NCBI GenBank assembly: GCA_035632655.1
Contig: DASQGK010000098.1
Coordinates: 7,810 to 71,809, forward strand
Origin: Steroidobacteraceae bacterium
Lineage (GTDB): Bacteria; Pseudomonadota; Gammaproteobacteria; Steroidobacterales; Steroidobacteraceae
Length of the DNA stretch: 64,000 nucleotides
Reading direction: 5' to 3'
In this document: one piece after another, positions 6,414 to 17,965 of the stretch
Numbering within the stretch: position 1 is the stretch's first letter
Layout: every line of letters starts with the position of its first letter
Notes under the pieces: model-generated
Seen by the model: the letters and a program-made list of their open reading frames with translations, nothing else
Told to the model about the DNA's origin: nothing
Databases searched by the model: none
Made by a program: the position numbers and the translations under genes

Positions 6414-6570
6414 GGTGGACGCGCAGTATAGGCAGGCGTGGCAGTGGTGATATGCTGCGTTGCAGCAATAGCGCCAGGATCACGATTTGCAACGATGACA
6501 ACCGGGTGTGCGCCTCTATACTCTGCCTCGCCTTGGCGGCCGTGAGGGCAAGCTCGAGCCTGAGTGAGTG

Positions 6571-8385
6571 ATGGAACCTACCGATACTTCCCACCCCGAT
6601 TACTATCATCGAGTTGTGGACTGCCAGTGGGCCTGCCCGGCCCACACCGATGTTCCCGAGTACATCCGCCTGATTGCGCAGGGCCGCTTCACCGACGCCT
6701 ACATGGTGAACCGGCACTCGAACGTCTTCCCGGGCATCCTCGGGCGCGTGTGCGATCGTCCGTGCGAGCCGGCCTGCCGCCGCGGGCGCATCGAGCAGAA
6801 GCCGGTGGCCATCTGCCGCCTGAAGCGCGTCGCCGCCGATCACCGTGACGACATCACCTCCAGGCTCCCCCCGATACCGAAGCTGAAGAACGGCAAGCGC
6901 ATCGCCTGCATCGGTGCCGGCTGCGCTTCCCTCACGGTGGCCAACGATCTGATGCCGCTCGGCTATCAGGTGACGATTTTCGAGCAGTATGGCGAGCCTG
7001 GCGGCCTGATGCGCACCAACATCCCCTCGTTCCGCCTGCCGGCGACGGTATTGAACGAGGAGATCGCGCAGATCACCGGCATGGGCGTCGACCTCAGGCT
7101 CAATACGCCGGTGAAGAGTCTGCGCGAGCTGCTGCGCTCGGGCGGTTTCGATGCGGTGTTCGTCGGCTCCGGCGCACCGAAGGGCAAGGAGCTGACTCTC
7201 CCCGGGCGCGAGGCCGGCGCCGCCAACATTCACATCGGCATCGCCTGGCTCGAGTCGGTGGCCTTCGGTCACATCGACAAGATCGGCAAGCGCGTCCTCA
7301 TCATCGGCGTCGGCAACACGGCGATGGACTGCTGCCGCACCAGCCTTCGCCTCGGCGCCGACAGCGTCAAGGTCATGGCGCGCAAGCCGCGCGGCTTCTT
7401 CAAGGCGTCCGCCTGGGAGCTCGAGGACGCCGAGGAAGAAAGCGTCGAGATCGTGGTCAACCGCGCGCCCAAGGCCTTCTGCTTGGAGGGCGGCCGGCTC
7501 ACCGGCATGCTGTTCGAGAAGATGGAGTACGACCTCGATGCACAGGGCCGCATCGTGCGCGAGCGCAGCACCGGCGAGGAATTTCTGCCGGCGGACGACG
7601 TGATCCTCGCCATCGGCCAGGAGAACGCTTTCCCCTGGATCGAACGCGACCTCGGCATCGAGTTCGACAAGTGGGACGTGCCGGTCATCGACAAGACGAC
7701 CTTCCAGTCGAGTCTGCCGCAGGTGTTCTTCGGCGGCGATGCGGCCTTCGGGCCGAAGAACATCATCTGGGCGGTCGAGCACGGGCATCAGGCTGCCATC
7801 TCCATCCACCGGCATTGCCAGGGTGAGGCGGTGGCCGAGCGCTTGCCGCCGGGCGTCAATCTGCAGAGCCGCAAGATGGGCATGCACGAGTGGTCGTACT
7901 CGAACGACTACACGCCGGTCGAACGGCGCCTCATGCCGCACGTGTCGATCAAGGAACGCTTCAAGAAACTCAACATCGAAGTCGAGCTCGGCTTCACCGC
8001 CGAGCAGGTCGAGCAGGAGGTGCAGCGCTGCCTCAACTGCGACGTGCAGACGGTGTTCACGGCGAAGCTGTGCATCGAGTGCGACGCCTGCCTCGACATC
8101 TGCCCGGTGGACTGTCTCACCATCACGCACAACGGGGAGGAGGGCGAGCTGCGCACCCGGCTCAAGGCCAAGGCGTTGAACCTGACGCAGCCGCTGTACG
8201 TGTCCGCCGCGCTCCCGCAGACCGGACGTGTCATGGTGAAGGACGAGGACCTGTGTGTGCACTGCGGGCTGTGCGCCGAGCGCTGTCCCACCGCGGCCTG
8301 GGACATGCAGAAGTCCGAGATCCGCTGGCCGCATGCCGCGGATGAGCCCGCGCCGCCGGTGAAGCGCGCCGCCAGGATCGCCTGA
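6571..8385 (+). CDS. GltD-like NAD(P)H-dependent flavoprotein with C-terminal 2x[4Fe-4S] ferredoxin domain (putative third subunit of the 2-oxoacid oxidoreductase)
   Basis: About 604 aa. It has an N-terminal Cys cluster (CQWACP...CDRPCEPAC), the dinucleotide fold IACIGAGCASLTVANDL and a second VLIIGVGNTAMD, and C-terminal CIECDACLDICP and CVHCGLCAERCP. ATG at 6571 (GTG at 6568 also possible). Confidence 0.8.
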   Translation: MEPTDTSHPDYYHRVVDCQWACPAHTDVPEYIRLIAQGRFTDAYMVNRHSNVFPGILGRVCDRPCEPACRRGRIEQKPVAICRLKRVAADHRDDITSRLPPIPKLKNGKRIACIGAGCASLTVANDLMPLGYQVTIFEQYGEPGGLMRTNIPSFRLPATVLNEEIAQITGMGVDLRLNTPVKSLRELLRSGGFDAVFVGSGAPKGKELTLPGREAGAANIHIGIAWLESVAFGHIDKIGKRVLIIGVGNTAMDCCRTSLRLGADSVKVMARKPRGFFKASAWELEDAEEESVEIVVNRAPKAFCLEGGRLTGMLFEKMEYDLDAQGRIVRERSTGEEFLPADDVILAIGQENAFPWIERDLGIEFDKWDVPVIDKTTFQSSLPQVFFGGDAAFGPKNIIWAVEHGHQAAISIHRHCQGEAVAERLPPGVNLQSRKMGMHEWSYSNDYTPVERRLMPHVSIKERFKKLNIEVELGFTAEQVEQEVQRCLNCDVQTVFTAKLCIECDACLDICPVDCLTITHNGEEGELRTRLKAKALNLTQPLYVSAALPQTGRVMVKDEDLCVHCGLCAERCPTAAWDMQKSEIRWPHAADEPAPPVKRAARIA

Positions 8386-8386
8386 C

Positions 8387-10240
8387 ATGTCTCCGACCGC
8401 CACACGCGTCAACGACTTCACCATCAAGATCGCCACGGTGAACGGCACCGGCTCGGCCAGCGCCAACACCCTGCTCATGAAGTCGATCTTCAGGAGCGGC
8501 ATCCCGGTGATGGGCAAGAATTACTTTCCCTCGAATATCCAGGGGCTGCCCACCTGGTACGAGATCCGCGTGACCCGCGAAGGCTACGTGGCCCGTTCCG
8601 GACAGGTCGACCTGATGGTGGCGATGAATGCGGAGACCTACGCGCGCGATGTGCGCGAGGTCGCCGCCGGCGGCTACCTGGTGTACGACTCCACCTGGCC
8701 GCGGCCCGCGCTGCTGAAGCGCGACGACATCACGGTGCTGGGCGTGCCGCTGGCGAAACTCTGCAACGAGAATTTCAACGGGGTGCGCACCCGCATCCTG
8801 ATGAAGAACATCTGCTACGCGGGGGTCCTGGCGGCGCTGCTCGACCTCGACCTGGCGCGCATCCGCGAGCTCCTCGCCGAGACCTACGCGAAGAAGCCGC
8901 AGCTGGTCGACAGCAACATGAAGGCGATCCAGCTCGGCTACGACTACGCGCGCGAGCACTTCACCTGTCCGCTGCCGCTGCGCGTCGAGCAGATGGACCG
9001 CACGGCCGGCCACATCATGATCGACGGCAACACCGCCGCGGCTTTGGGGTGCGTGTTCGCCGGCGCGACGGTGGCGGCGTGGTATCCGATCACCCCGTCC
9101 ACCTCGCTCATGGACGCATTCAAGATGTTCGCCGATCGCAGCCGCGTCGATAAGGAGAGCGGCGCGAGGAACTTCGCTTTCATCCAGGCCGAGGACGAGC
9201 TCGCTGCGGTCGGCATGGTGATCGGCGCCATGTGGAACGGTGCGCGCGCCTTCACCGCCACCTCCGGCCCCGGCATCTCGCTCATGAACGAGTTTCTCGG
9301 GCTCGCGTATTACGCCGAAGTGCCGGCGGTAATTTTCGACATCCAGCGCGTCGGCCCCTCGACCGGCATGCCGACCCGCACCCAGCAGGGCGACCTCATG
9401 CTGGCCGCCTACGCCTCGCACGGCGACACCCGTCATGTGTGCCTCTATCCGGCCAACCCCGAGGAGTGCTTCTACATGGCGGCGCAGGCCTTCGATCTCG
9501 CCGAGCGACTACAGACCCCGGTGCTGGTGCTGTCGGATCTCGACATCGGCATGAACGACTGGATGTGCCGGGATTTGAAGTGGGACGACACCTACCGGCC
9601 CGATCGCGGCAAGGTGCTCGGCAAGGAAGAGGTCCAGAAGCTCAAGAAGTTCTACCGCTTCCTCGACGTGGACGACGACGGCATCGCCTACCGCACGCTG
9701 CCGGGGGTCGACCCCAAGGCCGCCTACTTCGCCCGCGGCTCGGGCCACAACCAGTACGGCGTCTACACCGAGGACTCGGCCGAGTACCAGGTCGTCCTCG
9801 ACCGGCTGATGCGCAAGTGGGCGACCGCGAAGCGGCTGGTGCCGCGCGCGGTGATCGATGCCACCACGGACTCGAAGATCGGCATCGTTTCTCTCGGCAG
9901 CTGCGATGGCGCGATCCGCGAGGCACGCGACGTACTCGGCCGCCGCGGCATCGCGGTGGACTATATGCGCGTGCGCTCCTTCCCCTTCAGCGAGGACGTC
10001 GAGAAGTTCCTGGCGGCACATGAGCTGCTGTTCATCGTCGAGCAGAACCGCGACGCGCAGCTGCGCTCGCTCCTGACGCTGGAGACGCCGGTCGATAAGT
10101 CGAAGCTCCGCTCGCTGCTGCATTACTCGGGGCTGCCGATCTCCTCGGCCTTCATCGTCGACGGAGTGCTCGGCGAGCTGCAGCACGAGCGCGCGGCCGG
10201 ACCGGTCAGGGAGCGCACCGCGCAGGGGGCTTCGTCATGA
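8387..10240 (+). CDS. korA: 2-oxoacid:acceptor oxidoreductase subunit alpha (KorA-like)
   Basis: 617 aa. N-terminus FTIKIATVNGTGSASANTLLMKSIFRSGIPV is typical of the fused gamma/alpha KorA. It starts 1 nt after the upstream stop. Confidence 0.9.
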   Translation: MSPTATRVNDFTIKIATVNGTGSASANTLLMKSIFRSGIPVMGKNYFPSNIQGLPTWYEIRVTREGYVARSGQVDLMVAMNAETYARDVREVAAGGYLVYDSTWPRPALLKRDDITVLGVPLAKLCNENFNGVRTRILMKNICYAGVLAALLDLDLARIRELLAETYAKKPQLVDSNMKAIQLGYDYAREHFTCPLPLRVEQMDRTAGHIMIDGNTAAALGCVFAGATVAAWYPITPSTSLMDAFKMFADRSRVDKESGARNFAFIQAEDELAAVGMVIGAMWNGARAFTATSGPGISLMNEFLGLAYYAEVPAVIFDIQRVGPSTGMPTRTQQGDLMLAAYASHGDTRHVCLYPANPEECFYMAAQAFDLAERLQTPVLVLSDLDIGMNDWMCRDLKWDDTYRPDRGKVLGKEEVQKLKKFYRFLDVDDDGIAYRTLPGVDPKAAYFARGSGHNQYGVYTEDSAEYQVVLDRLMRKWATAKRLVPRAVIDATTDSKIGIVSLGSCDGAIREARDVLGRRGIAVDYMRVRSFPFSEDVEKFLAAHELLFIVEQNRDAQLRSLLTLETPVDKSKLRSLLHYSGLPISSAFIVDGVLGELQHERAAGPVRERTAQGASS

Positions 10241-11295
10241 CTTTCATCGCCAAGCCGAAGGTCGCCCACCCCTCGCTCCCCCGCAACACGCTCGGGCTGA
10301 CGCGCCGCGACTACGAGGGAGCGCTCTCGACGCTGTGCGCCGGCTGCGGCCACGACTCGATCACCGCGGCGATCGTCGAGGCGAGCTGGGGACTGTCGCT
10401 CCAGCCGCAGAACGTCGTGAAGCTGTCGGGGATCGGTTGCTCTTCCAAGACCACCGCCTATTTCGTCTCCGGCGGTCACGGCTTCAACTCCGTGCACGGC
10501 CGCATGCCCTCGATCGCCATGGGGGCGAATGCCGCCAACCGCAACCTCACCTACATCGGTGTCTCGGGCGACGGTGACACCCTGTCGATCGGCCTGGGGC
10601 AGTTCTGCCACGCCATCCGCCGCAACCTCGACATGCTCTACATCATCGAGAACAACGGCGTTTACGGGCTCACCAAGGGACAGTTCTCCGCCTCCGCCGA
10701 CATCGGCACCCGCGCGAAGAAGGGCGAGACCAACGTGCAGCCGCCGATCGACCCCGTGCTGCTCGCGATGACCCTCGGGGCATCGTTCGTGGCGCGCAGC
10801 TTCTCCGGCGACAAGGAGCAGCTGGTGCCGCTGATCCAGGCGGGCCTCAAGCACCGCGGCTTCGCGCTGATCGACGTGCTCTCGCCCTGTGTCACCTTCA
10901 ACGACCACGAGGGCTCGACCAAGAGCTACGCCTACACCCGCGAGCACTACGAGCCCGCGGTGCACACCGACTTCATCCCGCTCGAGCGGGAGATTACCGC
11001 CGCTTACCGGCAAGGCGAGGCGCTGCCGGTGGTGATGCACGACGGCAGCCGCATCGTGCTGCGCAAGCTCGACTCGGGCTACGACCCGACGAATCGCACC
11101 CTGGCCGCCGCGCAGATTCAGGAGCGCATGAAGGCGGGCGAGTACCTGACGGGACTGCTGTTCCTCGATGAGGGGGCGCAGCATGAATTTCACCAGGTGA
11201 ACTCGACCCCCGCGGCGCCGCTCAACAGCATTCCCTACGAGCAACTGTCACCCGGGTCGAAGGGCCTGGAGAAAATTCTCGCCCGTTATCGCTAG
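10237..11295 (+). CDS. korB: 2-oxoacid:ferredoxin oxidoreductase subunit beta (KorB-like, TPP-binding)
   Basis: 352 aa. ATGA overlap with korA. Motifs: CAGCGHDSI and the TPP motif GVSGDGDTLSIG...NNGVYGLTKGQ. Confidence 0.9.
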   Translation: MTFIAKPKVAHPSLPRNTLGLTRRDYEGALSTLCAGCGHDSITAAIVEASWGLSLQPQNVVKLSGIGCSSKTTAYFVSGGHGFNSVHGRMPSIAMGANAANRNLTYIGVSGDGDTLSIGLGQFCHAIRRNLDMLYIIENNGVYGLTKGQFSASADIGTRAKKGETNVQPPIDPVLLAMTLGASFVARSFSGDKEQLVPLIQAGLKHRGFALIDVLSPCVTFNDHEGSTKSYAYTREHYEPAVHTDFIPLEREITAAYRQGEALPVVMHDGSRIVLRKLDSGYDPTNRTLAAAQIQERMKAGEYLTGLLFLDEGAQHEFHQVNSTPAAPLNSIPYEQLSPGSKGLEKILARYR

Positions 11296-11321: not shown

Positions 11322-11693
11322 CTAGAGGCCCTCGGGGCGCTCCGGCGGCGAACGCCAGTGCCAGTCCTGCGGCAGGGAGCCCAGCCGGTCGCGTCGGCTC
11401 CGCCACAGCGTTTGCCTCATCCATTTTTCCACGGCGAGCAGCGTATCGGGATCGAGCTGGCAGGTGCGGGTACCCCGCTCTTTCGATGTCCGCACCAGCC
11501 CGCAGCGCTCCAGAACCTGGACGTGATCCAGGACCCCTCTGAATGAAATTGCGAAGGCCTCGGCCAGCTCGGTCACCGTCACGTCGCCTTCCGCGAGACG
11601 CTCGATGATCCAGCGGCTGTTGGTATTGGCCAGGGCGCGAAATACACGGTTGAGCTGACGGTCGAACACGCCGCCAGCTGACACCCTGCTCAC
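11322..11693 (-). CDS. ArsR/SmtB-family transcriptional regulator
   Basis: 123 aa with a GTG start. Winged HTH: VTELAEAFAISFRGVLDHVQVLERCGLV. The start may be one of two downstream GTGs. Confidence 0.8.
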   Translation of the reverse strand: MSRVSAGGVFDRQLNRVFRALANTNSRWIIERLAEGDVTVTELAEAFAISFRGVLDHVQVLERCGLVRTSKERGTRTCQLDPDTLLAVEKWMRQTLWRSRRDRLGSLPQDWHWRSPPERPEGL

Positions 11694-11933: not shown

Positions 11934-13145
11934 CTAACGCACCGCCGAGCCGAACGCGTAGCGCACCGCGAGCTGCACCTGCGTCTCGCGGGCGAGTGCC
12001 GCAAGGCCGAAGGCGTCCGCGCGCAGATAGGAATTGCTCGTCACCCGCAGCCACTCGAGCGTGAAGCGCCAGTGGTCGTCGGGGATGAAAACCCAGGCCG
12101 CCGTCCACGCGTGACCGGTCTCGGCGCCGTCGGTGGTGTTGGGATCGACCTCGAAGCGGTCGTAGCGGGCGCTGACGGTGTTACGGCCGAACTGCCTGGC
12201 GATGAGGGCGTACTGCGCTTTGAAAGGCCAGTCGAGCACGAAGCCGCCGGGCACGATGCTGGTCTCGCCCTTGAGGCTCTGCACGATCGCCGTCCAGCCG
12301 TCGCCGCTTTCAAAGCGCGCCCCCACCGCATCGAAGGTGGTTTCCCAGGGCATGGCGCCGGAGACGAAGTTCTCCACGGTGGGATCGGCGCGGTTGTCAT
12401 AGCGCAGGGCCCGCACCACCAGGCGATTGAACCAGCGCATCTCGAGCCCCCCGTACACGCCGACACGGCCGTCGAGCTGGCGGAAGGGCTCCAGGTTGAA
12501 GAGCACCGGATCGCCGGGCAGCCCGACACGACCACCCAGCGGGGTCTGCCGGTCGGTGAGCGTGAAGCCATCGCCCGCGATGAAGGTGCCCGCGCCCTCG
12601 TTCCAGCCGAAGGCGCCGCCGGTCACGCTGAGATCGAAGTCATGTCCCTGCCGCGTGCCGAGCCAGTCGAGCTGCGCCTCGATACCGATCGTGCGCACCT
12701 CGATCGCAAGCCAGCTGTCGATCGCCGAGGATGTGAGTGTGTAGGGAGACTCCCATCCCGAGGCCCGGTTCTCGAGAGATATCGGTGGATAGAAGGCGCC
12801 CGCCTTGATGCGCAGGCGGTAACCGGCGAAGGGATAGGGCCGGAACTGCAGGTAGCCCTCGGTGAGCCCGAAGGGGATGCGGTCGTGGTCGCCCCACGCC
12901 GAAGCGTCGAGGTGCACGCTCCACACTTCACCGAGTGACTCGGTGAGCGCAAAGCGCGCGCGGCCGAGCCTCAGGCCCGATTGGTCCTGGTCGAAGCGCA
13001 CGCCGCTGATGCCACCCTGCGTGTAGGAAGGATCGGCGTTCGAGCTCACCAGCCGCCCATCGAGATCGAGCTCCCAGCCATCGGCGTGCGCGCCGGCGGC
13101 GAGGGTGAGCGCGGCGAGAGACAACAGTGCGACCGCGGCGCGCAT
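11934..13145 (-). CDS. outer-membrane beta-barrel (porin-like) protein, family unknown
   Basis: About 403 aa from ATG 13145. Signal peptide MRAAVALLSLAALTLAAGAHA, then alternating amphipathic beta-strand pattern throughout. The start shares a base with the upstream stop (TGATG). Confidence 0.6.
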   Translation of the reverse strand: MRAAVALLSLAALTLAAGAHADGWELDLDGRLVSSNADPSYTQGGISGVRFDQDQSGLRLGRARFALTESLGEVWSVHLDASAWGDHDRIPFGLTEGYLQFRPYPFAGYRLRIKAGAFYPPISLENRASGWESPYTLTSSAIDSWLAIEVRTIGIEAQLDWLGTRQGHDFDLSVTGGAFGWNEGAGTFIAGDGFTLTDRQTPLGGRVGLPGDPVLFNLEPFRQLDGRVGVYGGLEMRWFNRLVVRALRYDNRADPTVENFVSGAMPWETTFDAVGARFESGDGWTAIVQSLKGETSIVPGGFVLDWPFKAQYALIARQFGRNTVSARYDRFEVDPNTTDGAETGHAWTAAWVFIPDDHWRFTLEWLRVTSNSYLRADAFGLAALARETQVQLAVRYAFGSAVR

Positions 13146-13795
13146 CAGTAATCCCACGAATGCTGCCGGGCGATCGGCGCCGGCTCCAGGGATTTGAGGA
13201 GTCGCAGCGTCAGCTCCGCATGATCCCCTTCCCCGACCGTGAGCTCGCGCTCGAGGTCGGTGTCTGTGTCGCGCATCCGCGGGTGCCAGATCGAGATCCG
13301 GTAACGGCCGCGTGCCACCTCGACCGTCCACGCACCCGCCGCATTGGTGCGGCCGTAGAAGGGCGCATCGGTGACCAGCAGGTAGCCGACCATCTCGTCG
13401 TGGATGTTGCAGCCGAGGGTGACGACCCCTGCCTGGTCGAAGTGCACCGGCGGATAAGGCGTGCCGCGATAGAGCGGCAGCTGAAAGCGCTTGGCCGGCG
13501 AGAACGAGTAGATCTGATGGCTCACCGTGTCGCTGTTGGGGAAGGTCACGGTCGAGCCGACCGGGATGACCAGCAGATCCGGCTGAAAGGCGCGGTTCAC
13601 CTGGTCCATCACCGCCTTGATGGGCGCCAGCTTGTGCGGGGCACCGTCCAGGGGCGTCGCCGTGACGACGGCGCCCTGAAGGGGACGGCCGTCAGAGGTG
13701 TGCACCGAGATGACCAGGGTAGCCGCATCTGCTGCCGCCCCGGCGAACACGCCGAGGAGAGCCAGGATCAGTCCGGTTCGTGCCGGAGGTCTCAT
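13145..13795 (-). CDS. periplasmic cupredoxin-like protein (often annotated methylamine utilization protein) with predicted type-1 Cu ligands
   Basis: 216 aa with a signal peptide. Motifs VTFPNSDTVSHQIYS and GCNIHDEM (Cys-x2-His-x2-Met, encoded at 13391-13411), flanked by Ig/carboxypeptidase-regulatory-like segments. Confidence 0.7.
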   Translation of the reverse strand: MRPPARTGLILALLGVFAGAAADAATLVISVHTSDGRPLQGAVVTATPLDGAPHKLAPIKAVMDQVNRAFQPDLLVIPVGSTVTFPNSDTVSHQIYSFSPAKRFQLPLYRGTPYPPVHFDQAGVVTLGCNIHDEMVGYLLVTDAPFYGRTNAAGAWTVEVARGRYRISIWHPRMRDTDTDLERELTVGEGDHAELTLRLLKSLEPAPIARQHSWDY

Positions 13796-13856
13796 TCCCG
13801 CACTCGTTTCCTCGCTCAGGGCGAGGTGGGCCGCCTACGATGGGTCAGGGATTCGA

Positions 13857-16256
13857 ATGCATTTTATGGGCAGTTTCCGCAAACGGCTTCTCGTGCTGAT
13901 TATCGGCCTGGTGGTCGTCACTCAAACTGTGACGCTTGCCGCAGTGCTCGTCAGCACCCGGAACGCCGTGGAGGAGCGGGCCGCCGAGCAGCTCTCCAAG
14001 GGCGGCGATCTGGCGCAGCGACTGACCCGGGACCGTGCCATCCAGCTGGCGAGCGGCGTGGCTGTGACGGCAGCCGACTTCGGCTTCCGCGAGGCGGTCG
14101 CCACCGGGGACCGGGCCACCATCCTTTCCGCCGCCCAGAACAACGCGGGGCGCATCGGCGCCGACGTGGTGATGGTGCTCGATACCCGCGGCAAGGTGCT
14201 GGCGAGCACCGTTCCCGTGGACGAGGACGCGGCCGCCTCCGTCCGCGCGCTGCTGCGCGACCCGGAAGCGCGCGGGGCGCCGGCATTCCTGGCCCTCGGG
14301 GCCGATTCCTATCAGCTGGTGCTCGCGCCGGTGCGCACTCCCGAGACCATCGCCTGGGTCGCGATGGGATTTCTCGCCGAAGACAAGCAGGCAACGGACA
14401 TCCACAACCTGGTCGGCTCGGAGGTCGCGCTCATCCTGCACGGCCACGACGGCGTGACCCGTGTGGGGACCACGCTGCCTCAGCCGCAGCGCGACGGGCT
14501 GCTGGCCACGGCACCTGCCGCCGGAGGCGATGCCCCCCATCTCGTGAGCATCGCGGGCAAGGAGTACCTGGCGGTCGCGCAGCGGCTCGATGCGCTCGGC
14601 GACCCCGCCGAAGTGCGGCTGCTGAAGCTGCAGAGCGACGTGCTCGAGCCCTTCCACCAGCTGCGCGATGCCATGCTCGTGATCGCCGGCGTGGCGCTGC
14701 TGATGGCGGCCCTGGTCGGTGCGGTCCTCGGGCGCGGCGCTACCCGCCCGATCGGTGAGCTGGCGCGCGCCGCCCAGCGCATCCAGAAGGGACATTACGA
14801 CACCGCCGTCAACGTCTCGGGGGGCGACGAGTTCGAAAGCCTGGCGCAGACCTTCAACGCGATGCAGCGAAACATCGCGGAGCGCGAGGCCGCCATCACC
14901 TTCCACGCGCAGCACGACCCGCTCACCCAGCTGCCGAACCGCTGGTTCGCCACCCAGGTGCTCGAGCGGCTGGCCGCCGACGGTGTCCAACAGGCGGCGC
15001 GCGGGGCGCTGATCCTGATCGGCATCCGCAATCTGCGCGATATCAACGCATCCCTCGGGCTCTCCGTAGGCGATGACGTGCTGCGCGAGGTGGCGCATCG
15101 CCTGCGGCAGAACATCGGGGAAACCGACACGGTGGCGCGCCTCGGCGAGGCGCAGTTTGTCGTCATCTGTCCCGGCTGCTCGCCGGAGCGCGCCCTGCTC
15201 TATGCCGAGCAGCTCATTGGCCTGGTGCGCACCGGCTTCCACCTCGCCGGCCTCGGCCTCGATCTGCGCGTCTCCGGTGGCTTGTGCCTGGTGCCCGAGC
15301 ACGGCAGGACGGCTGACGAGCTGCTGCAGCACGCGCAGATCGCCATCGAGGAGGCGCGCGCGCGCGACGCGCACAGCGGCGTCGCCAGCTATCGCCCGGG
15401 ACAGGACGATGTGTACCGCCGCCGCCTGACCCTGATCACCGACCTGCGCGCGGCGATCGACGGTGACCAGCTGCATCTCGTGTATCAGCCGCTCGTCACC
15501 ATGGCGACGCGCTCGGTGCGCACACTCGAGGCGCTGGTGCGCTGGACGCATCCGCAGCTCGGCGCCGTGACTCCCGGCGAGTTCGTGCCGCTCGCCGAAA
15601 GCACCGGCGGCTCGGGCCGCCTCACCCAGTGGGTGCTGAAGACCGCCATCCGCCAGATGGCCCGCTGGCGCGAGGAGGGGCTGGACCTGCAGCTCGCCGT
15701 CAACCTCTCCGCACCGGACATTCTCGATCCGCACCTCGGCGATGAGATCCTGGCGCTGCTGCGTCAGCACTCGGTGCACCCGACCTCTCTGCTGCTCGAG
15801 ATCACCGAGAGCGCGGTGATGCGCGATCCGCAGCGGGCGGCCCGCAACATGCAGCTGCTGCGCATCGCCGGCGTGCGCTTCGCCATCGACGACTTCGGCA
15901 CCGGCCACTCCTCGCTCTCGCAGCTGAGCCTGCTGCCGGTCGATGAGCTCAAGATCGACCGCTCGCTCGTCACCCAGGCGGCGAACGGGGCGCCGATGAT
16001 CGTCACCTCGACCATCGAGCTCGGCCACGGCATGGGCCTCAAGGTAGTGGCGGAGGGTGTAGAGGATGCGGAAGCCTGGAGCCTGATGCGGCGCCTCGGC
16101 TGCGACTTCGCGCAGGGCTATCTCATCAGCCCGCCCATGCCCGTGTCGCAGGTGGCGCCGTTCGTGCGGCAGGCGAATCAGCTGCTGCCGGCCTCCGATG
16201 CCACCGTGCTGCAGATCCGCGCCCTCGACCAGCTCGCGGGCCGCACCAAGCGCTAG
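13857..16256 (+). CDS. membrane sensor protein: periplasmic Cache-like domain, HAMP, degenerate GGDEF, EAL (probable c-di-GMP phosphodiesterase)
   Basis: About 799 aa. It has two TM segments, then HAMP (RPIGELARAAQRIQKGHYD). The GGDEF position reads RLGEAQF (15144-15158). EAL motifs are intact: EALVRW (15528-15536), DDFGTGHSSL, KIDRSLV, EGVE. Confidence 0.9.
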   Translation: MHFMGSFRKRLLVLIIGLVVVTQTVTLAAVLVSTRNAVEERAAEQLSKGGDLAQRLTRDRAIQLASGVAVTAADFGFREAVATGDRATILSAAQNNAGRIGADVVMVLDTRGKVLASTVPVDEDAAASVRALLRDPEARGAPAFLALGADSYQLVLAPVRTPETIAWVAMGFLAEDKQATDIHNLVGSEVALILHGHDGVTRVGTTLPQPQRDGLLATAPAAGGDAPHLVSIAGKEYLAVAQRLDALGDPAEVRLLKLQSDVLEPFHQLRDAMLVIAGVALLMAALVGAVLGRGATRPIGELARAAQRIQKGHYDTAVNVSGGDEFESLAQTFNAMQRNIAEREAAITFHAQHDPLTQLPNRWFATQVLERLAADGVQQAARGALILIGIRNLRDINASLGLSVGDDVLREVAHRLRQNIGETDTVARLGEAQFVVICPGCSPERALLYAEQLIGLVRTGFHLAGLGLDLRVSGGLCLVPEHGRTADELLQHAQIAIEEARARDAHSGVASYRPGQDDVYRRRLTLITDLRAAIDGDQLHLVYQPLVTMATRSVRTLEALVRWTHPQLGAVTPGEFVPLAESTGGSGRLTQWVLKTAIRQMARWREEGLDLQLAVNLSAPDILDPHLGDEILALLRQHSVHPTSLLLEITESAVMRDPQRAARNMQLLRIAGVRFAIDDFGTGHSSLSQLSLLPVDELKIDRSLVTQAANGAPMIVTSTIELGHGMGLKVVAEGVEDAEAWSLMRRLGCDFAQGYLISPPMPVSQVAPFVRQANQLLPASDATVLQIRALDQLAGRTKR

Positions 16257-17182
16257 TCGCCCCCCTCCAGCAGCGCATCCACGCGCTGCCGGTACTTGAG
16301 CAGCAGCTCCGCCGCGAAATCGGCGAACACCCGGATCTTGGGTGAGTGGCGCACCGCCGTGCGGCACACCACCGACAGCGGCGGCCCCGGTGCCGACCAC
16401 TCCCTCAGAACGAGCTCGAGCTTGCCGACGGCCAGAGCTTCCGCGGCCAGCAGGTCCATCGTCTGGGTGATGCCGCCGCCGCGCACCGCCGCCAGCATCT
16501 GTGCCTCGGGAGTGTTGAAGGCGACGCTGAAGGGGAGGGCGAGCTGCCTGGCTTTCCCGGCGCGCTGAAACAGCCACTTGTAGGGGCGGCGCCCCCTGCT
16601 CGAGAAGTGACCGATGAGCTTGTGGCGGCGCAGGTCGTCAGGCTCGGCGGGCTCGCCGTGCTCGCGCAGGTACTCGGGTGAGGCGCAGGTCAGGAGGCGG
16701 GTGGTGACGATGCGCCGCGCGACGAGGTGCGGCTCCTTCACTGTCCCGCCGCGGATCGTCAGGTCGACTTCCTCCTCGATCAGGTCGATCACGCGGTCGT
16801 TGAGTTGTACCTCGAGCTGCAGATCCGGATAGCGCGCGGTGAAGCGCGGCAGCGCCGGGATCAGCAGCGCACGGCCGAAGACCACCGGCACATCCACGCG
16901 CAGCCTTCCCGACACCGCCAGACGCGTGCCGCGCACCGCCTCATCGGCTGCCTCGAGCTCGGCGAGGATCCTCAGGCACCGGGCCAGGTATTCCGCGCCG
17001 TCGCTCGTGAGTCCCACGCGCCGTGTCGTCCGATGGAACAGCTGACACTTGAGATGGCGCTCGAGCTCGGCGACGTGCGTGCTCACCACCGCGCGCGACA
17101 CCCCGAGCGCATCGGCGGCGCGCGTGAAGGAGTGGAGCTCGGCGACGCGCGCGAAGCTGCGCATGCACACCAGCTGGTCCAT
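16253..17182 (-). CDS. LysR-family transcriptional regulator
   Basis: 309 aa. N-terminal HTH FTRAADALGVSRAVVSTHVAELE, plus a LysR substrate-binding domain. Confidence 0.9.
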   Translation of the reverse strand: MDQLVCMRSFARVAELHSFTRAADALGVSRAVVSTHVAELERHLKCQLFHRTTRRVGLTSDGAEYLARCLRILAELEAADEAVRGTRLAVSGRLRVDVPVVFGRALLIPALPRFTARYPDLQLEVQLNDRVIDLIEEEVDLTIRGGTVKEPHLVARRIVTTRLLTCASPEYLREHGEPAEPDDLRRHKLIGHFSSRGRRPYKWLFQRAGKARQLALPFSVAFNTPEAQMLAAVRGGGITQTMDLLAAEALAVGKLELVLREWSAPGPPLSVVCRTAVRHSPKIRVFADFAAELLLKYRQRVDALLEGGD

Positions 17183-17400: not shown

Positions 17401-17668
17401 AGCGCGCCGCTCGCACCCGCGGCTGCGCTCCCGTCGGCAGTTTGACAAGGTTCGCTTGTGCCCCAACCCGGCGTTAGGGTATCGTCCGCGCCGGATCGTG
17501 ACCTTTCCCTTTCCTGCCGCTTGCCGCCCGCCTGTTTGCGAGTCGGCTTCCGAGTCTGAAAAGCCGAATCGTTCCCGACCAGGTGGCAGCATGCGCGCAC
17601 CGACGAGTCTTTTCCGACCGTGGTCAGCATTCCTGCCGTGACTGTGTTTGTTTCAGGAGTCTGACTGC

Positions 17669-17965
17669 ATGACGAAGATCTACGTGGGCAATCTGCCCTT
17701 CTCTGCCACTGATGCCGAAGTCCGCGAGCTGTTTGCCCAGCACGGCACCGTCGAGTCGGTGAGCCTCATCACCGATCGCGACACCGGCCGGCCGCGCGGT
17801 TTCGGGTTCGTCGAGATGTCGCGCGCCGATGCCTCGCGCGCGATCCAGAATCTCAACGGCAAGGACCTCGGCGGACGCCCGCTGCGGGTCAACGAGGCCC
17901 AGGAGCGTGGTGGCGGCGGCGGCGGTGGCGGCAACCGTGGCGGCGGCGCGCCGAAGCGCTGGTAA
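17669..17965 (+). CDS. RRM-domain RNA-binding protein with Gly-rich tail
   Basis: 98 aa from ATG 17669, with AGGAG upstream. RNP2 IYVGNL, RNP1 RGFGFVEM, C-terminal GGGGGGGGNRGGG. Confidence 0.9.
   Translation: MTKIYVGNLPFSATDAEVRELFAQHGTVESVSLITDRDTGRPRGFGFVEMSRADASRAIQNLNGKDLGGRPLRVNEAQERGGGGGGGGNRGGGAPKRW

Follow-up and report, generated by a model that had tools for sequence, protein, structure and literature searches.

A type-1 copper protein encoded beside dCache_3 sensors and an outer-membrane partner: a putative envelope-spanning sensory module in Steroidobacteraceae and other bacteria

Why should the gene for an exported copper protein lie between those for an outer-membrane barrel and an inner-membrane enzyme of cyclic di-GMP (c-di-GMP) turnover? 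We addressed this question for a locus in a 64,000-nucleotide stretch of a Steroidobacteraceae genome (assembly GCA_035632655.1, contig DASQGK010000098.1, positions 7,810 to 71,809; the whole stretch is called the window and all coordinates refer to it). The locus is composed of four features:

11934..13145, minus strand: outer-membrane barrel gene, 403 amino acids, signal peptide ...AGAHA/DG, distant Porin_O_P-like family
13145..13795, minus strand: exported type-1 copper protein gene, 216 amino acids, two domains
13796..13856, between the strands: divergent intergenic region, 61 nucleotides to the ATG at 13857 or 70 nucleotides to the conserved ATG at 13866
13857..16256, plus strand: inner-membrane sensor phosphodiesterase gene, 799 amino acids, with a first transmembrane segment (TM1), periplasmic dCache_3, TM2, HAMP, degenerate GGDEF and EAL

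The three open reading frames (ORFs) are all present as laid out in a preliminary description made from the sequence alone, including its starts 61 nucleotides apart and its shared stop and start: direct reading places base 13145 both in the stop codon TGA of the copper protein (13147-13145) and in the start codon ATG of the barrel (13145-13143). As developed below, the three genes probably form an envelope-spanning sensory module, probably one that reads the redox or copper state outside the cytoplasm.

Loci encoding relatives of the copper protein were fetched in three independent ways, namely by a peptide-pattern scan with the protein itself (38 loci), from an evenly drawn sample of 400 Gammaproteobacteria genomes and by a profile-pattern scan (80 loci), and their ORFs were called by a simple script weighted by the GC content of third codon positions. 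A dCache_3-type sensor was encoded at most 1.5 kb away in 103 of the 126 non-redundant loci from other genomes with a full-length member of the cupredoxin family, and in 72 of the 87 among them whose flanks extend to 3 kb or more on either side; because the loci are phylogenetically related, these counts are descriptive and do not represent independent trials. The pairing spans alpha-, beta- and gammaproteobacteria as well as other phyla and was seen in Steroidobacteraceae, Woeseiaceae, Pseudomonas, Herbaspirillum, Caballeronia, Sphaerotilus, Erythrobacter and Brevundimonas; the organisms of the survey also include metagenome-assembled genomes (MAGs) labeled Verrucomicrobiae, Acidobacteria and Myxococcota. 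Three orders of the pair were found (divergent, cupredoxin followed by sensor in an operon, and sensor followed by a gap and the cupredoxin), and together with the partner genes the following arrangements were distinguished:

Arrangement (i), the type of the window: sensor divergent from cupredoxin followed by a Porin_O_P-like barrel; Steroidobacterales, Woeseiaceae, Chromatiaceae
Arrangement (ii): cupredoxin followed by sensor, with DUF3034 and a secreted truncated hemoglobin (Bac_globin); Pseudomonas, Herbaspirillum, Caballeronia, Erythrobacter, Brevundimonas and others
Arrangement (iii): DUF4394, then cupredoxin, then sensor; Hydrogenophaga, Acidovorax
Arrangement (iv): unnamed signal-peptide protein of about 290 amino acids, then cupredoxin, usually then the sensor

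Every other flanking gene differs between lineages. The survey of gene neighborhoods that the preliminary description had proposed thus found the cupredoxin conserved together with the dCache_3 sensor in several classes and under several gene orders. The window's own genome holds exactly one dCache_3 gene, and the neighbor of this gene is the genome's single cupredoxin of this family. For the reciprocal comparison, a profile of the N-terminal 345 residues of the sensor was run against 400 Gammaproteobacteria drawn as for the cupredoxin search; matches to HAMP alone are ubiquitous and uninformative, and full-length matches at E<1e-50 were compared by hand with the cupredoxin coordinates. About three quarters of these full-length matches lie within approximately 1 kb of a cupredoxin match, one lies at a contig end and about six have no cupredoxin nearby. 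That the gene order was simply inherited without functional coupling is hardly credible in the light of these data: the closest Steroidobacteraceae MAGs do share long-range synteny that includes a LysR-type gene and oxidoreductase genes, but the two genes remain paired in different classes and phyla, in no fewer than three gene orders, while the other flanking genes differ.

Which part of the sensor is the copper protein tied to? In several loci the dCache_3-HAMP protein next to the cupredoxin ends in another output domain. It ends in a Guanylate_cyc (adenylate/guanylate cyclase) domain in L105, L108 and L145, of which L108 stems from a Verrucomicrobiae-labeled MAG, and in HisKA-HATPase in L092 and L148 (methanotrophs) and L126 (Alteromonas), with an OmpR-type regulator adjoining the histidine-kinase variant in L092. 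In the cupredoxin tree, the sequences from L092, L105, L108 and L145 fall among EAL-linked ones. Since the outputs swap and the swapped loci are nested in this way, the periplasmic input domain is the constant partner of the copper protein, and the conserved link of the copper protein is to this input domain and not to c-di-GMP chemistry.

The copper protein itself carries a plain N-terminal signal peptide without a lipobox, as read from its sequence. Its cupredoxin domain (approximately residues 55-142) is inserted within a CarboxypepD_reg-like beta-sandwich (approximately residues 24-48 and 146-198), and in P0218 the N-terminal part of the sandwich profile precedes the cupredoxin. The AlphaFold2 (AF2) model has the cupredoxin-type fold with a pLDDT (predicted local distance difference test) of 91, and the top Foldseek matches obtained with it are all cupredoxins (5fc9, pseudoazurins, amicyanins, plastocyanins; probability 1.00). 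A phmmer search of the PDB matched the purple cupredoxin 5fc9 (E 4e-5), the cupredoxin domain of NirK and amicyanins. The ligands lie at two places of the gene:

13517..13519, minus strand: His93, first copper ligand, in the motif PNSDTVSHQIYSFSP, invariant in our alignment A1 and aligned with the ligand His of 5fc9
13391..13411, minus strand: copper-ligand loop Cys129-Asn-Ile-His132-Asp-Glu-Met135, C-x2-H-x2-M with the spacing of amicyanin

H93, C129, H132 and M135 are invariant across 105 diverse family members, and remote subfamilies of about 25% identity keep the copper-ligand pattern and likewise adjoin dCache sensors. The predicted site is a complete type-1 copper site; the exported protein first called cupredoxin-like, whose fold is confirmed by modeling, carries the full His...Cys-x2-His-x2-Met ligand set, which is more than that label implied. 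With 510 clusters at 50% identity (E<=1e-30), the family is a large one. Candidates for Rosetta-stone fusions among its longer members turned out to be tandem duplications of the same module and not fusions to the sensor or the barrel.

Databases label the copper protein 'methylamine utilization protein' or 'plastocyanin'. Taken at its word, the first label would make it an amicyanin-type electron acceptor of an amine dehydrogenase, with an incidental sensor next door. Amicyanin, pseudoazurin and plastocyanin do share with it the cupredoxin fold and the His/Cys/His/Met ligands, the C-x2-H-x2-M spacing of the loop is that of amicyanin, and the genome encodes methylamine-dehydrogenase-like light and heavy chains. 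However, these chains are encoded on another contig, C104, beside a c-type cytochrome and without this cupredoxin, and no amine-dehydrogenase subunit was found near any of the 147 related loci fetched, so that the methylamine link was rejected. The window's protein further differs from the single-domain amicyanin of about 105 amino acids in having two domains and 216 amino acids, with the cupredoxin sitting inside the CarboxypepD_reg-like sandwich. In contrast to the blue copper carriers it has no link to mau, nir or photosynthesis genes; the recurrent neighbors of its family are a signaling protein and an outer-membrane barrel. We regard the amicyanin explanation as close to negligible. The dehydrogenase-like cluster on C104 (L151:6808-9498), of the methylamine/aromatic-amine type, encodes a heavy chain of 413 amino acids, a light chain of 176 amino acids, a 182-amino-acid ORF and the c-type cytochrome (CQGCH), and no amicyanin gene is adjacent to it.

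The sensor contains four Pfam domains, all above their cut-offs, and two hydrophobic segments (approximately residues 11-32 and 271-291) that flank the first of them:

13974..14597, plus strand: periplasmic dCache_3 domain, residues 40-247, PF14827, E 5e-12, 46.3 bits against a cut-off of 25.7 bits
14727..14876, plus strand: HAMP domain, residues 291-340
14907..15365, plus strand: degenerate GGDEF domain, residues 351-503
15441..16136, plus strand: EAL domain, residues 529-760, E 1e-70, full set of catalytic residues

The GGDEF site reads RLGEAQF (LGEAQF for GGDEF), the RxxD I-site is lost and the upstream Mg-binding Asp ('DxD/LDRF') is replaced (IRNLRD). The EAL, N(LS), E(ITES), DDFGTG, K(IDRS), EGVE and Q(GY) motifs are all present, and the EAL catalytic motif columns, those of loop 6 (DFG(T/A)GYSS) included, are kept in 33 of 33 aligned orthologues. 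Because the EAL motifs are intact and the GGDEF domain is degenerate without the Mg-binding Asp, the window's copy is, as judged from its motifs, a c-di-GMP phosphodiesterase with a GGDEF domain that is dead in this lineage. Pfam and the alignment of 33 orthologues accordingly bear out what had been said of the degenerate GGDEF and of the intact EAL, DDFGTG and EGVE motifs, and the phosphodiesterase assignment of the preliminary description was right. Degeneration of the GGDEF site is a trait of the Steroidobacteraceae clade, whereas the site is intact in the orthologues of Herbaspirillum, Hydrogenophaga, sphingomonads and Erythrobacter; on the same kind of evidence, the family overall includes enzymes in which both the GGDEF and the EAL motifs are kept. 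No NCBIfam equivalog was reached, and the best-scoring models (DibA, DosP, HmsP, LapD and YfiN) match only the cytoplasmic part, far below their cut-offs. On the periplasmic side, the conservation alignment yields a dCache_3 family motif of ADFGFREAVATGD..TI.SA..N...R together with a P158/P162/W167 block, and the strongly conserved block reads (L)A.DFGFR.AVA..D..TI.SA..N...R. A sequence search of the PDB found no relatives of the periplasmic domain.

These features bear on a scenario in which signaling runs from inside to outside as in LapD-LapG, the GGDEF-EAL protein acting as a receptor of c-di-GMP in the cytoplasm and controlling the cupredoxin in the periplasm or the barrel. Such an arrangement would fit the degenerate GGDEF in the lineage of the window, the order periplasmic domain-HAMP-GGDEF-EAL, which is that of LapD, and the partial NCBIfam match to LapD at 147 bits. 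The cut-off of that model is, however, 1020 bits, and the periplasmic domain is dCache_3 and not LapD_MoxY_N. Unlike in LapD the EAL catalytic residues are intact, in the protein of the window as well as in each of the 33 orthologues, the GGDEF site is preserved in many orthologues, and variants that end in a kinase or cyclase cannot act as such nucleotide receptors. The LapD-like scenario is disfavored because the EAL domain is intact and these variants exist, and we consider it very unlikely.

For the barrel, the AF2 model (pLDDT 86) shows about 16 strands, and Foldseek matched it to OmpT, chitoporin VhChiP, PorB and OprP/OprO (E 1e-13 to 1e-11), which substantiates, as a 16-strand porin fold, the porin-like beta-barrel of 403 amino acids originally proposed. 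The window barrel has no Pfam match and no sequence match in the PDB, but 12 of 31 relatives match Pfam Porin_O_P (PF07396) weakly (best E 4e-7) and some carry a precomputed PF07396 annotation. It resembles OprP/OprO and the general porins in the predicted 16-strand barrel, the Foldseek matches and the weak Porin_O_P matches among its relatives; it differs from them in lacking sequence matches of its own and in belonging to a family that, across the loci examined, is hardly ever seen without the cupredoxin gene. This Porin_O_P-like family is confined to one lineage, and its place is taken elsewhere by DUF3034, by the unnamed family of about 290 amino acids or by DUF4394, which looks periplasmic and not barrel-like. 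Nearly all loci have a partner gene, either of the outer-membrane type or periplasmic (DUF4394), and the type of outer-membrane partner switches several times along the cupredoxin tree. BLASTP found no significant similarity between the barrel and DUF3034, and the two look like analogues rather than homologues. Neither DUF3034 nor Bac_globin genes were found in the genome of the window (93.5% completeness).

At many loci (for example L052:11110-12586 and L066:10974-12271), carried by Pseudomonas, Herbaspirillum, Caballeronia, Erythrobacter and others, the cupredoxin-sensor unit is joined by a conserved gene pair for DUF3034 and a truncated hemoglobin that has a signal peptide. DUF3034 has a signal peptide and the C-terminus ...LQA[GS]F and is probably an outer-membrane barrel. 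The unnamed family (about 290-320 amino acids, signal peptide) occurs in L098:4998-5963, L099:5087-5968, L105:5030-5917, L107:5018-5911, L108:5136-5993 and L111:5020-5955; the C-terminus of most members is aromatic, as is typical of the outer membrane, no member matches Pfam, and mutual identity is 20-35% with the exception of L098 and L111 (76%). Since each member lies directly upstream of a cupredoxin gene, this family looks like a further alternative outer-membrane partner. For DUF3034 and the unnamed family, the assignment as outer-membrane barrels is drawn only from signal peptides and C-terminal aromatic residues.

How could these components work together? We consider it slightly better than an even bet that the copper protein serves the dCache_3 domain as a co-sensor of redox state or copper in the periplasm. 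One operon would supply the porin-fold barrel of the outer membrane and the exported type-1 copper protein from translationally coupled genes, and the divergent gene would supply the inner-membrane protein in which HAMP connects periplasmic dCache_3 to an EAL phosphodiesterase that is active. A redox-active solute, a gas or copper would reach the periplasm, possibly via the partner barrel, and the outer-membrane partner would either admit the stimulus or hold the copper protein. The copper center would then change its state (oxidized versus reduced, or loaded versus empty), and the copper protein in one of these states would bind the dCache_3 domain, from which HAMP would relay the signal to EAL and alter the rate of c-di-GMP hydrolysis or, in other lineages, to whichever output is used. 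The type-1 site is invariant, which argues that the redox state or the occupancy of the copper is central, and the secreted hemoglobin of other lineages points towards a theme of oxygen, nitric oxide or redox. The trans-envelope unit of three genes proposed in the preliminary description stands in part: the cupredoxin and the sensor are co-conserved and a partner gene is almost always present, but the barrel family belongs to a single lineage and the output is not always c-di-GMP, given the cyclase and histidine-kinase outputs.

In this scheme the contact between cupredoxin and sensor is inferred, as are the nature of the signal and the direction in which it regulates, and several observations weigh against the co-sensor role. 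No conserved His, Cys or Met was found in the alignment of the periplasmic domain of the sensor, which consequently shows no residues suggesting copper hand-over or thiol redox chemistry. Among the members of the cupredoxin family, no fusion to the sensor or the barrel was found. About a quarter of the close homologues of the sensor have no cupredoxin nearby. The correlation of distance matrices is r 0.64 between the cupredoxin and the periplasmic domain and r 0.69 between the cupredoxin and the EAL domain, and the partial correlation is 0.41 for cupredoxin-EAL versus 0.24 for cupredoxin-periplasmic domain, so that this comparison does not single out the input domain. Finally, in 15 of the 87 well-flanked loci no sensor adjoins the cupredoxin, which is accompanied there by a different partner, in most cases a barrel; the cupredoxin-barrel pair can therefore stand alone.

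These solitary pairs, with their outer-membrane or other partner, are what would be seen if the cupredoxin and the barrel were a self-contained periplasmic unit of electron transfer or copper handling, and if the sensor detected its cue through its own dCache_3 pocket or regulated the pair, the parts being co-regulated or related without touching. dCache domains usually bind small molecules. In the cinAQ/cinRS locus of Pseudomonas putida, an azurin-like gene is regulated by the copper-sensing two-component system encoded divergently from it. The order response regulator, kinase, barrel, cupredoxin of the methanotrophs resembles a two-component system controlling its own operon, and a Crp/Fnr-type regulator lies upstream in the Hydrogenophaga-type loci. 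Yet GGDEF-EAL and cyclase outputs, which cannot directly regulate neighboring genes, are the commonest partners, and the periplasmic domain stays constant across the output swaps, as a shared periplasmic ligand or partner predicts. The most conserved periplasmic motif of the sensor family (ADFGFREAV...) has, moreover, no known ligand assignment. Overall, we judge a self-contained unit to be rather unlikely, although it deserves to be taken seriously. In the Hydrogenophaga-type loci (L043:6202-7986, L044, L049), the Crp/Fnr-family regulator (cNMP_binding and HTH_Crp_2) and a DUF4394 lipoprotein precede the cupredoxin-sensor pair, and this regulator might be a nucleotide-responsive feedback element.

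Does the module with a copper co-sensor correspond to a system already described? Literature searches yielded no description of a cupredoxin-linked c-di-GMP sensor, of the function of DUF3034 or of a 'methylamine utilization protein' in signaling; PMC11404848, considered as a possible description of the module, was found to be unrelated. The earlier remark that no characterized system of this composition is known needs qualification, as YfiBNR (TpbB) of Pseudomonas aeruginosa, with outer-membrane YfiB, periplasmic YfiR and inner-membrane YfiN (PMC2837407, PMC3375315, PMC4887326), is analogous in composition but is built from unrelated proteins. In both cases three layers are encoded together, YfiR is a small periplasmic regulator that responds to the periplasmic state, and in the enzyme YfiN a periplasmic domain is combined with HAMP and a c-di-GMP domain. 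YfiB is, however, an OmpA/Pal-like lipoprotein without homology to the 16-strand porin of the window, YfiR is neither a cupredoxin nor equipped with a metal site, and YfiN, a cyclase, has a PAS-like domain in the periplasm, whereas the window encodes an EAL phosphodiesterase with dCache_3 input. The NCBIfam model DgcN/YfiN matches the window sensor through HAMP-GGDEF only (108 bits against a cut-off of 325), and no YfiB/YfiR-type Pfam or NCBIfam domains were found on the window's barrel or cupredoxin.

In NspS-MbaA of Vibrio cholerae, periplasmic NspS, encoded next to MbaA, binds the periplasmic domain of this TM-HAMP-GGDEF-EAL protein and determines how c-di-GMP synthesis is balanced against hydrolysis (PMC8967002, PMC8079147). 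The likeness lies in a periplasmic accessory protein encoded beside an enzyme of this topology; NspS is a PotD-type solute-binding polyamine sensor, in contrast to the cupredoxin/CarboxypepD_reg protein of the window, and the module of the window also has a conserved outer-membrane component and a signal that is presumably redox, copper or a gas. With the histidine-kinase variants one may compare DbfQ-DbfRS of V. cholerae, in which a small periplasmic protein encoded adjacently directly modulates a membrane sensor kinase (PMC12714742); its proteins are unrelated to those of the window and have no metal center. The module as proposed resembles YfiBNR, NspS-MbaA and DbfQ-DbfRS in its logic and is homologous to none of them, and we propose it as a so far undescribed form of accessory-protein-gated envelope signaling whose mechanism is plausible and unproven.

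In its broadest form, to which we give somewhat less than even credence, the proposal describes a widespread, uncharacterized trans-envelope class in which a type-1 copper protein is a redox-, gas- or copper-responsive co-receptor of dCache_3 sensors, combined with an interchangeable outer-membrane barrel, in many lineages with a secreted truncated hemoglobin, and with interchangeable outputs (c-di-GMP turnover, cyclic-nucleotide synthesis, histidine-kinase signaling). Few c-di-GMP enzymes have a known input, and for at least several hundred sensors the module offers a concrete, testable candidate: a blue-copper protein of the periplasm, the state of which could reflect copper, oxygen, nitric oxide or the redox poise beyond the cytoplasm. 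If this were true, a blue-copper center would serve signaling rather than bulk electron transfer, and a metal-center co-sensor would join the short list of accessory-protein-gated c-di-GMP systems (YfiBNR, NspS-MbaA, LapDG). Proteins mislabeled 'methylamine utilization protein' would gain a function, and DUF3034 and the unnamed outer-membrane family a context. One input wired to three outputs is also a natural system for studying signal transmission by dCache_3/HAMP.

With regard to the DNA between the divergent genes, the alignment of the intergenic region with six related loci indicates that the sensor start kept in relatives is the second ATG at 13866 (MGSFR...), and the start-to-start gap may for this reason be 70 nucleotides. 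The blocks TCGAAT, CATCGTAG and GCGAG are kept across 7 relatives. Both promoters and both ribosome sites must fit within the gap 13796..13856; a scan of the locus for sigma-70 promoters and terminators gave nothing above the expectation from shuffled sequence, and no sigma-70 consensus. A 910-amino-acid ORF antisense to the whole sensor gene (13845-16577, minus strand) was dismissed as an artefact of the GC content of about 70% and not a gene.

Two observations concern individual loci of the survey. At G226:C11:413352-414248, a homologue of the sensor domain adjoining a cupredoxin gene contains two in-frame stops (TAG, TAA) and may be a pseudogene. The contig of L044 / L138 (CALRLO020000024.1), binned as 'Synechococcus sp. 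UW140', has a module and neighboring genes in a layout near-identical to the Hydrogenophaga locus and is probably a binning contaminant.

The nearest relatives of the window's locus are Steroidobacteraceae MAGs, and the genes around it were compared with theirs. Convergent with the sensor gene and overlapping its 3' end by 4 nucleotides is the gene for a LysR-type regulator (16253-17182, minus strand), whose position is kept in nine Steroidobacteraceae-type loci (cluster c5) and not beyond that group. Just 3' of the barrel gene and on the same strand, 11322-11693 encodes a small ArsR/MarR-like winged-helix protein of 123 amino acids; the closest relative, L031, has a 124-amino-acid ORF at this position that falls into a different BLAST cluster, and no other locus has one. 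Further away, a cluster of three genes (6568-11295, plus strand) is syntenic among close relatives (clusters c7, c12 and c6). Its first ORF (605 amino acids) contains 4Fe-4S cysteine motifs and a glycine-rich nucleotide-binding motif, and from their sequences the ORFs of 617 and 352 amino acids resemble the alpha and beta subunits of 2-oxoacid:ferredoxin oxidoreductase. On the other side of the locus, 17648-17965 (plus strand) encodes a glycine-rich RNA-binding protein of 105 amino acids of the RNA recognition motif (RRM) type (…KIYVGNLPF…RGFGFVEM…GGGGGG).

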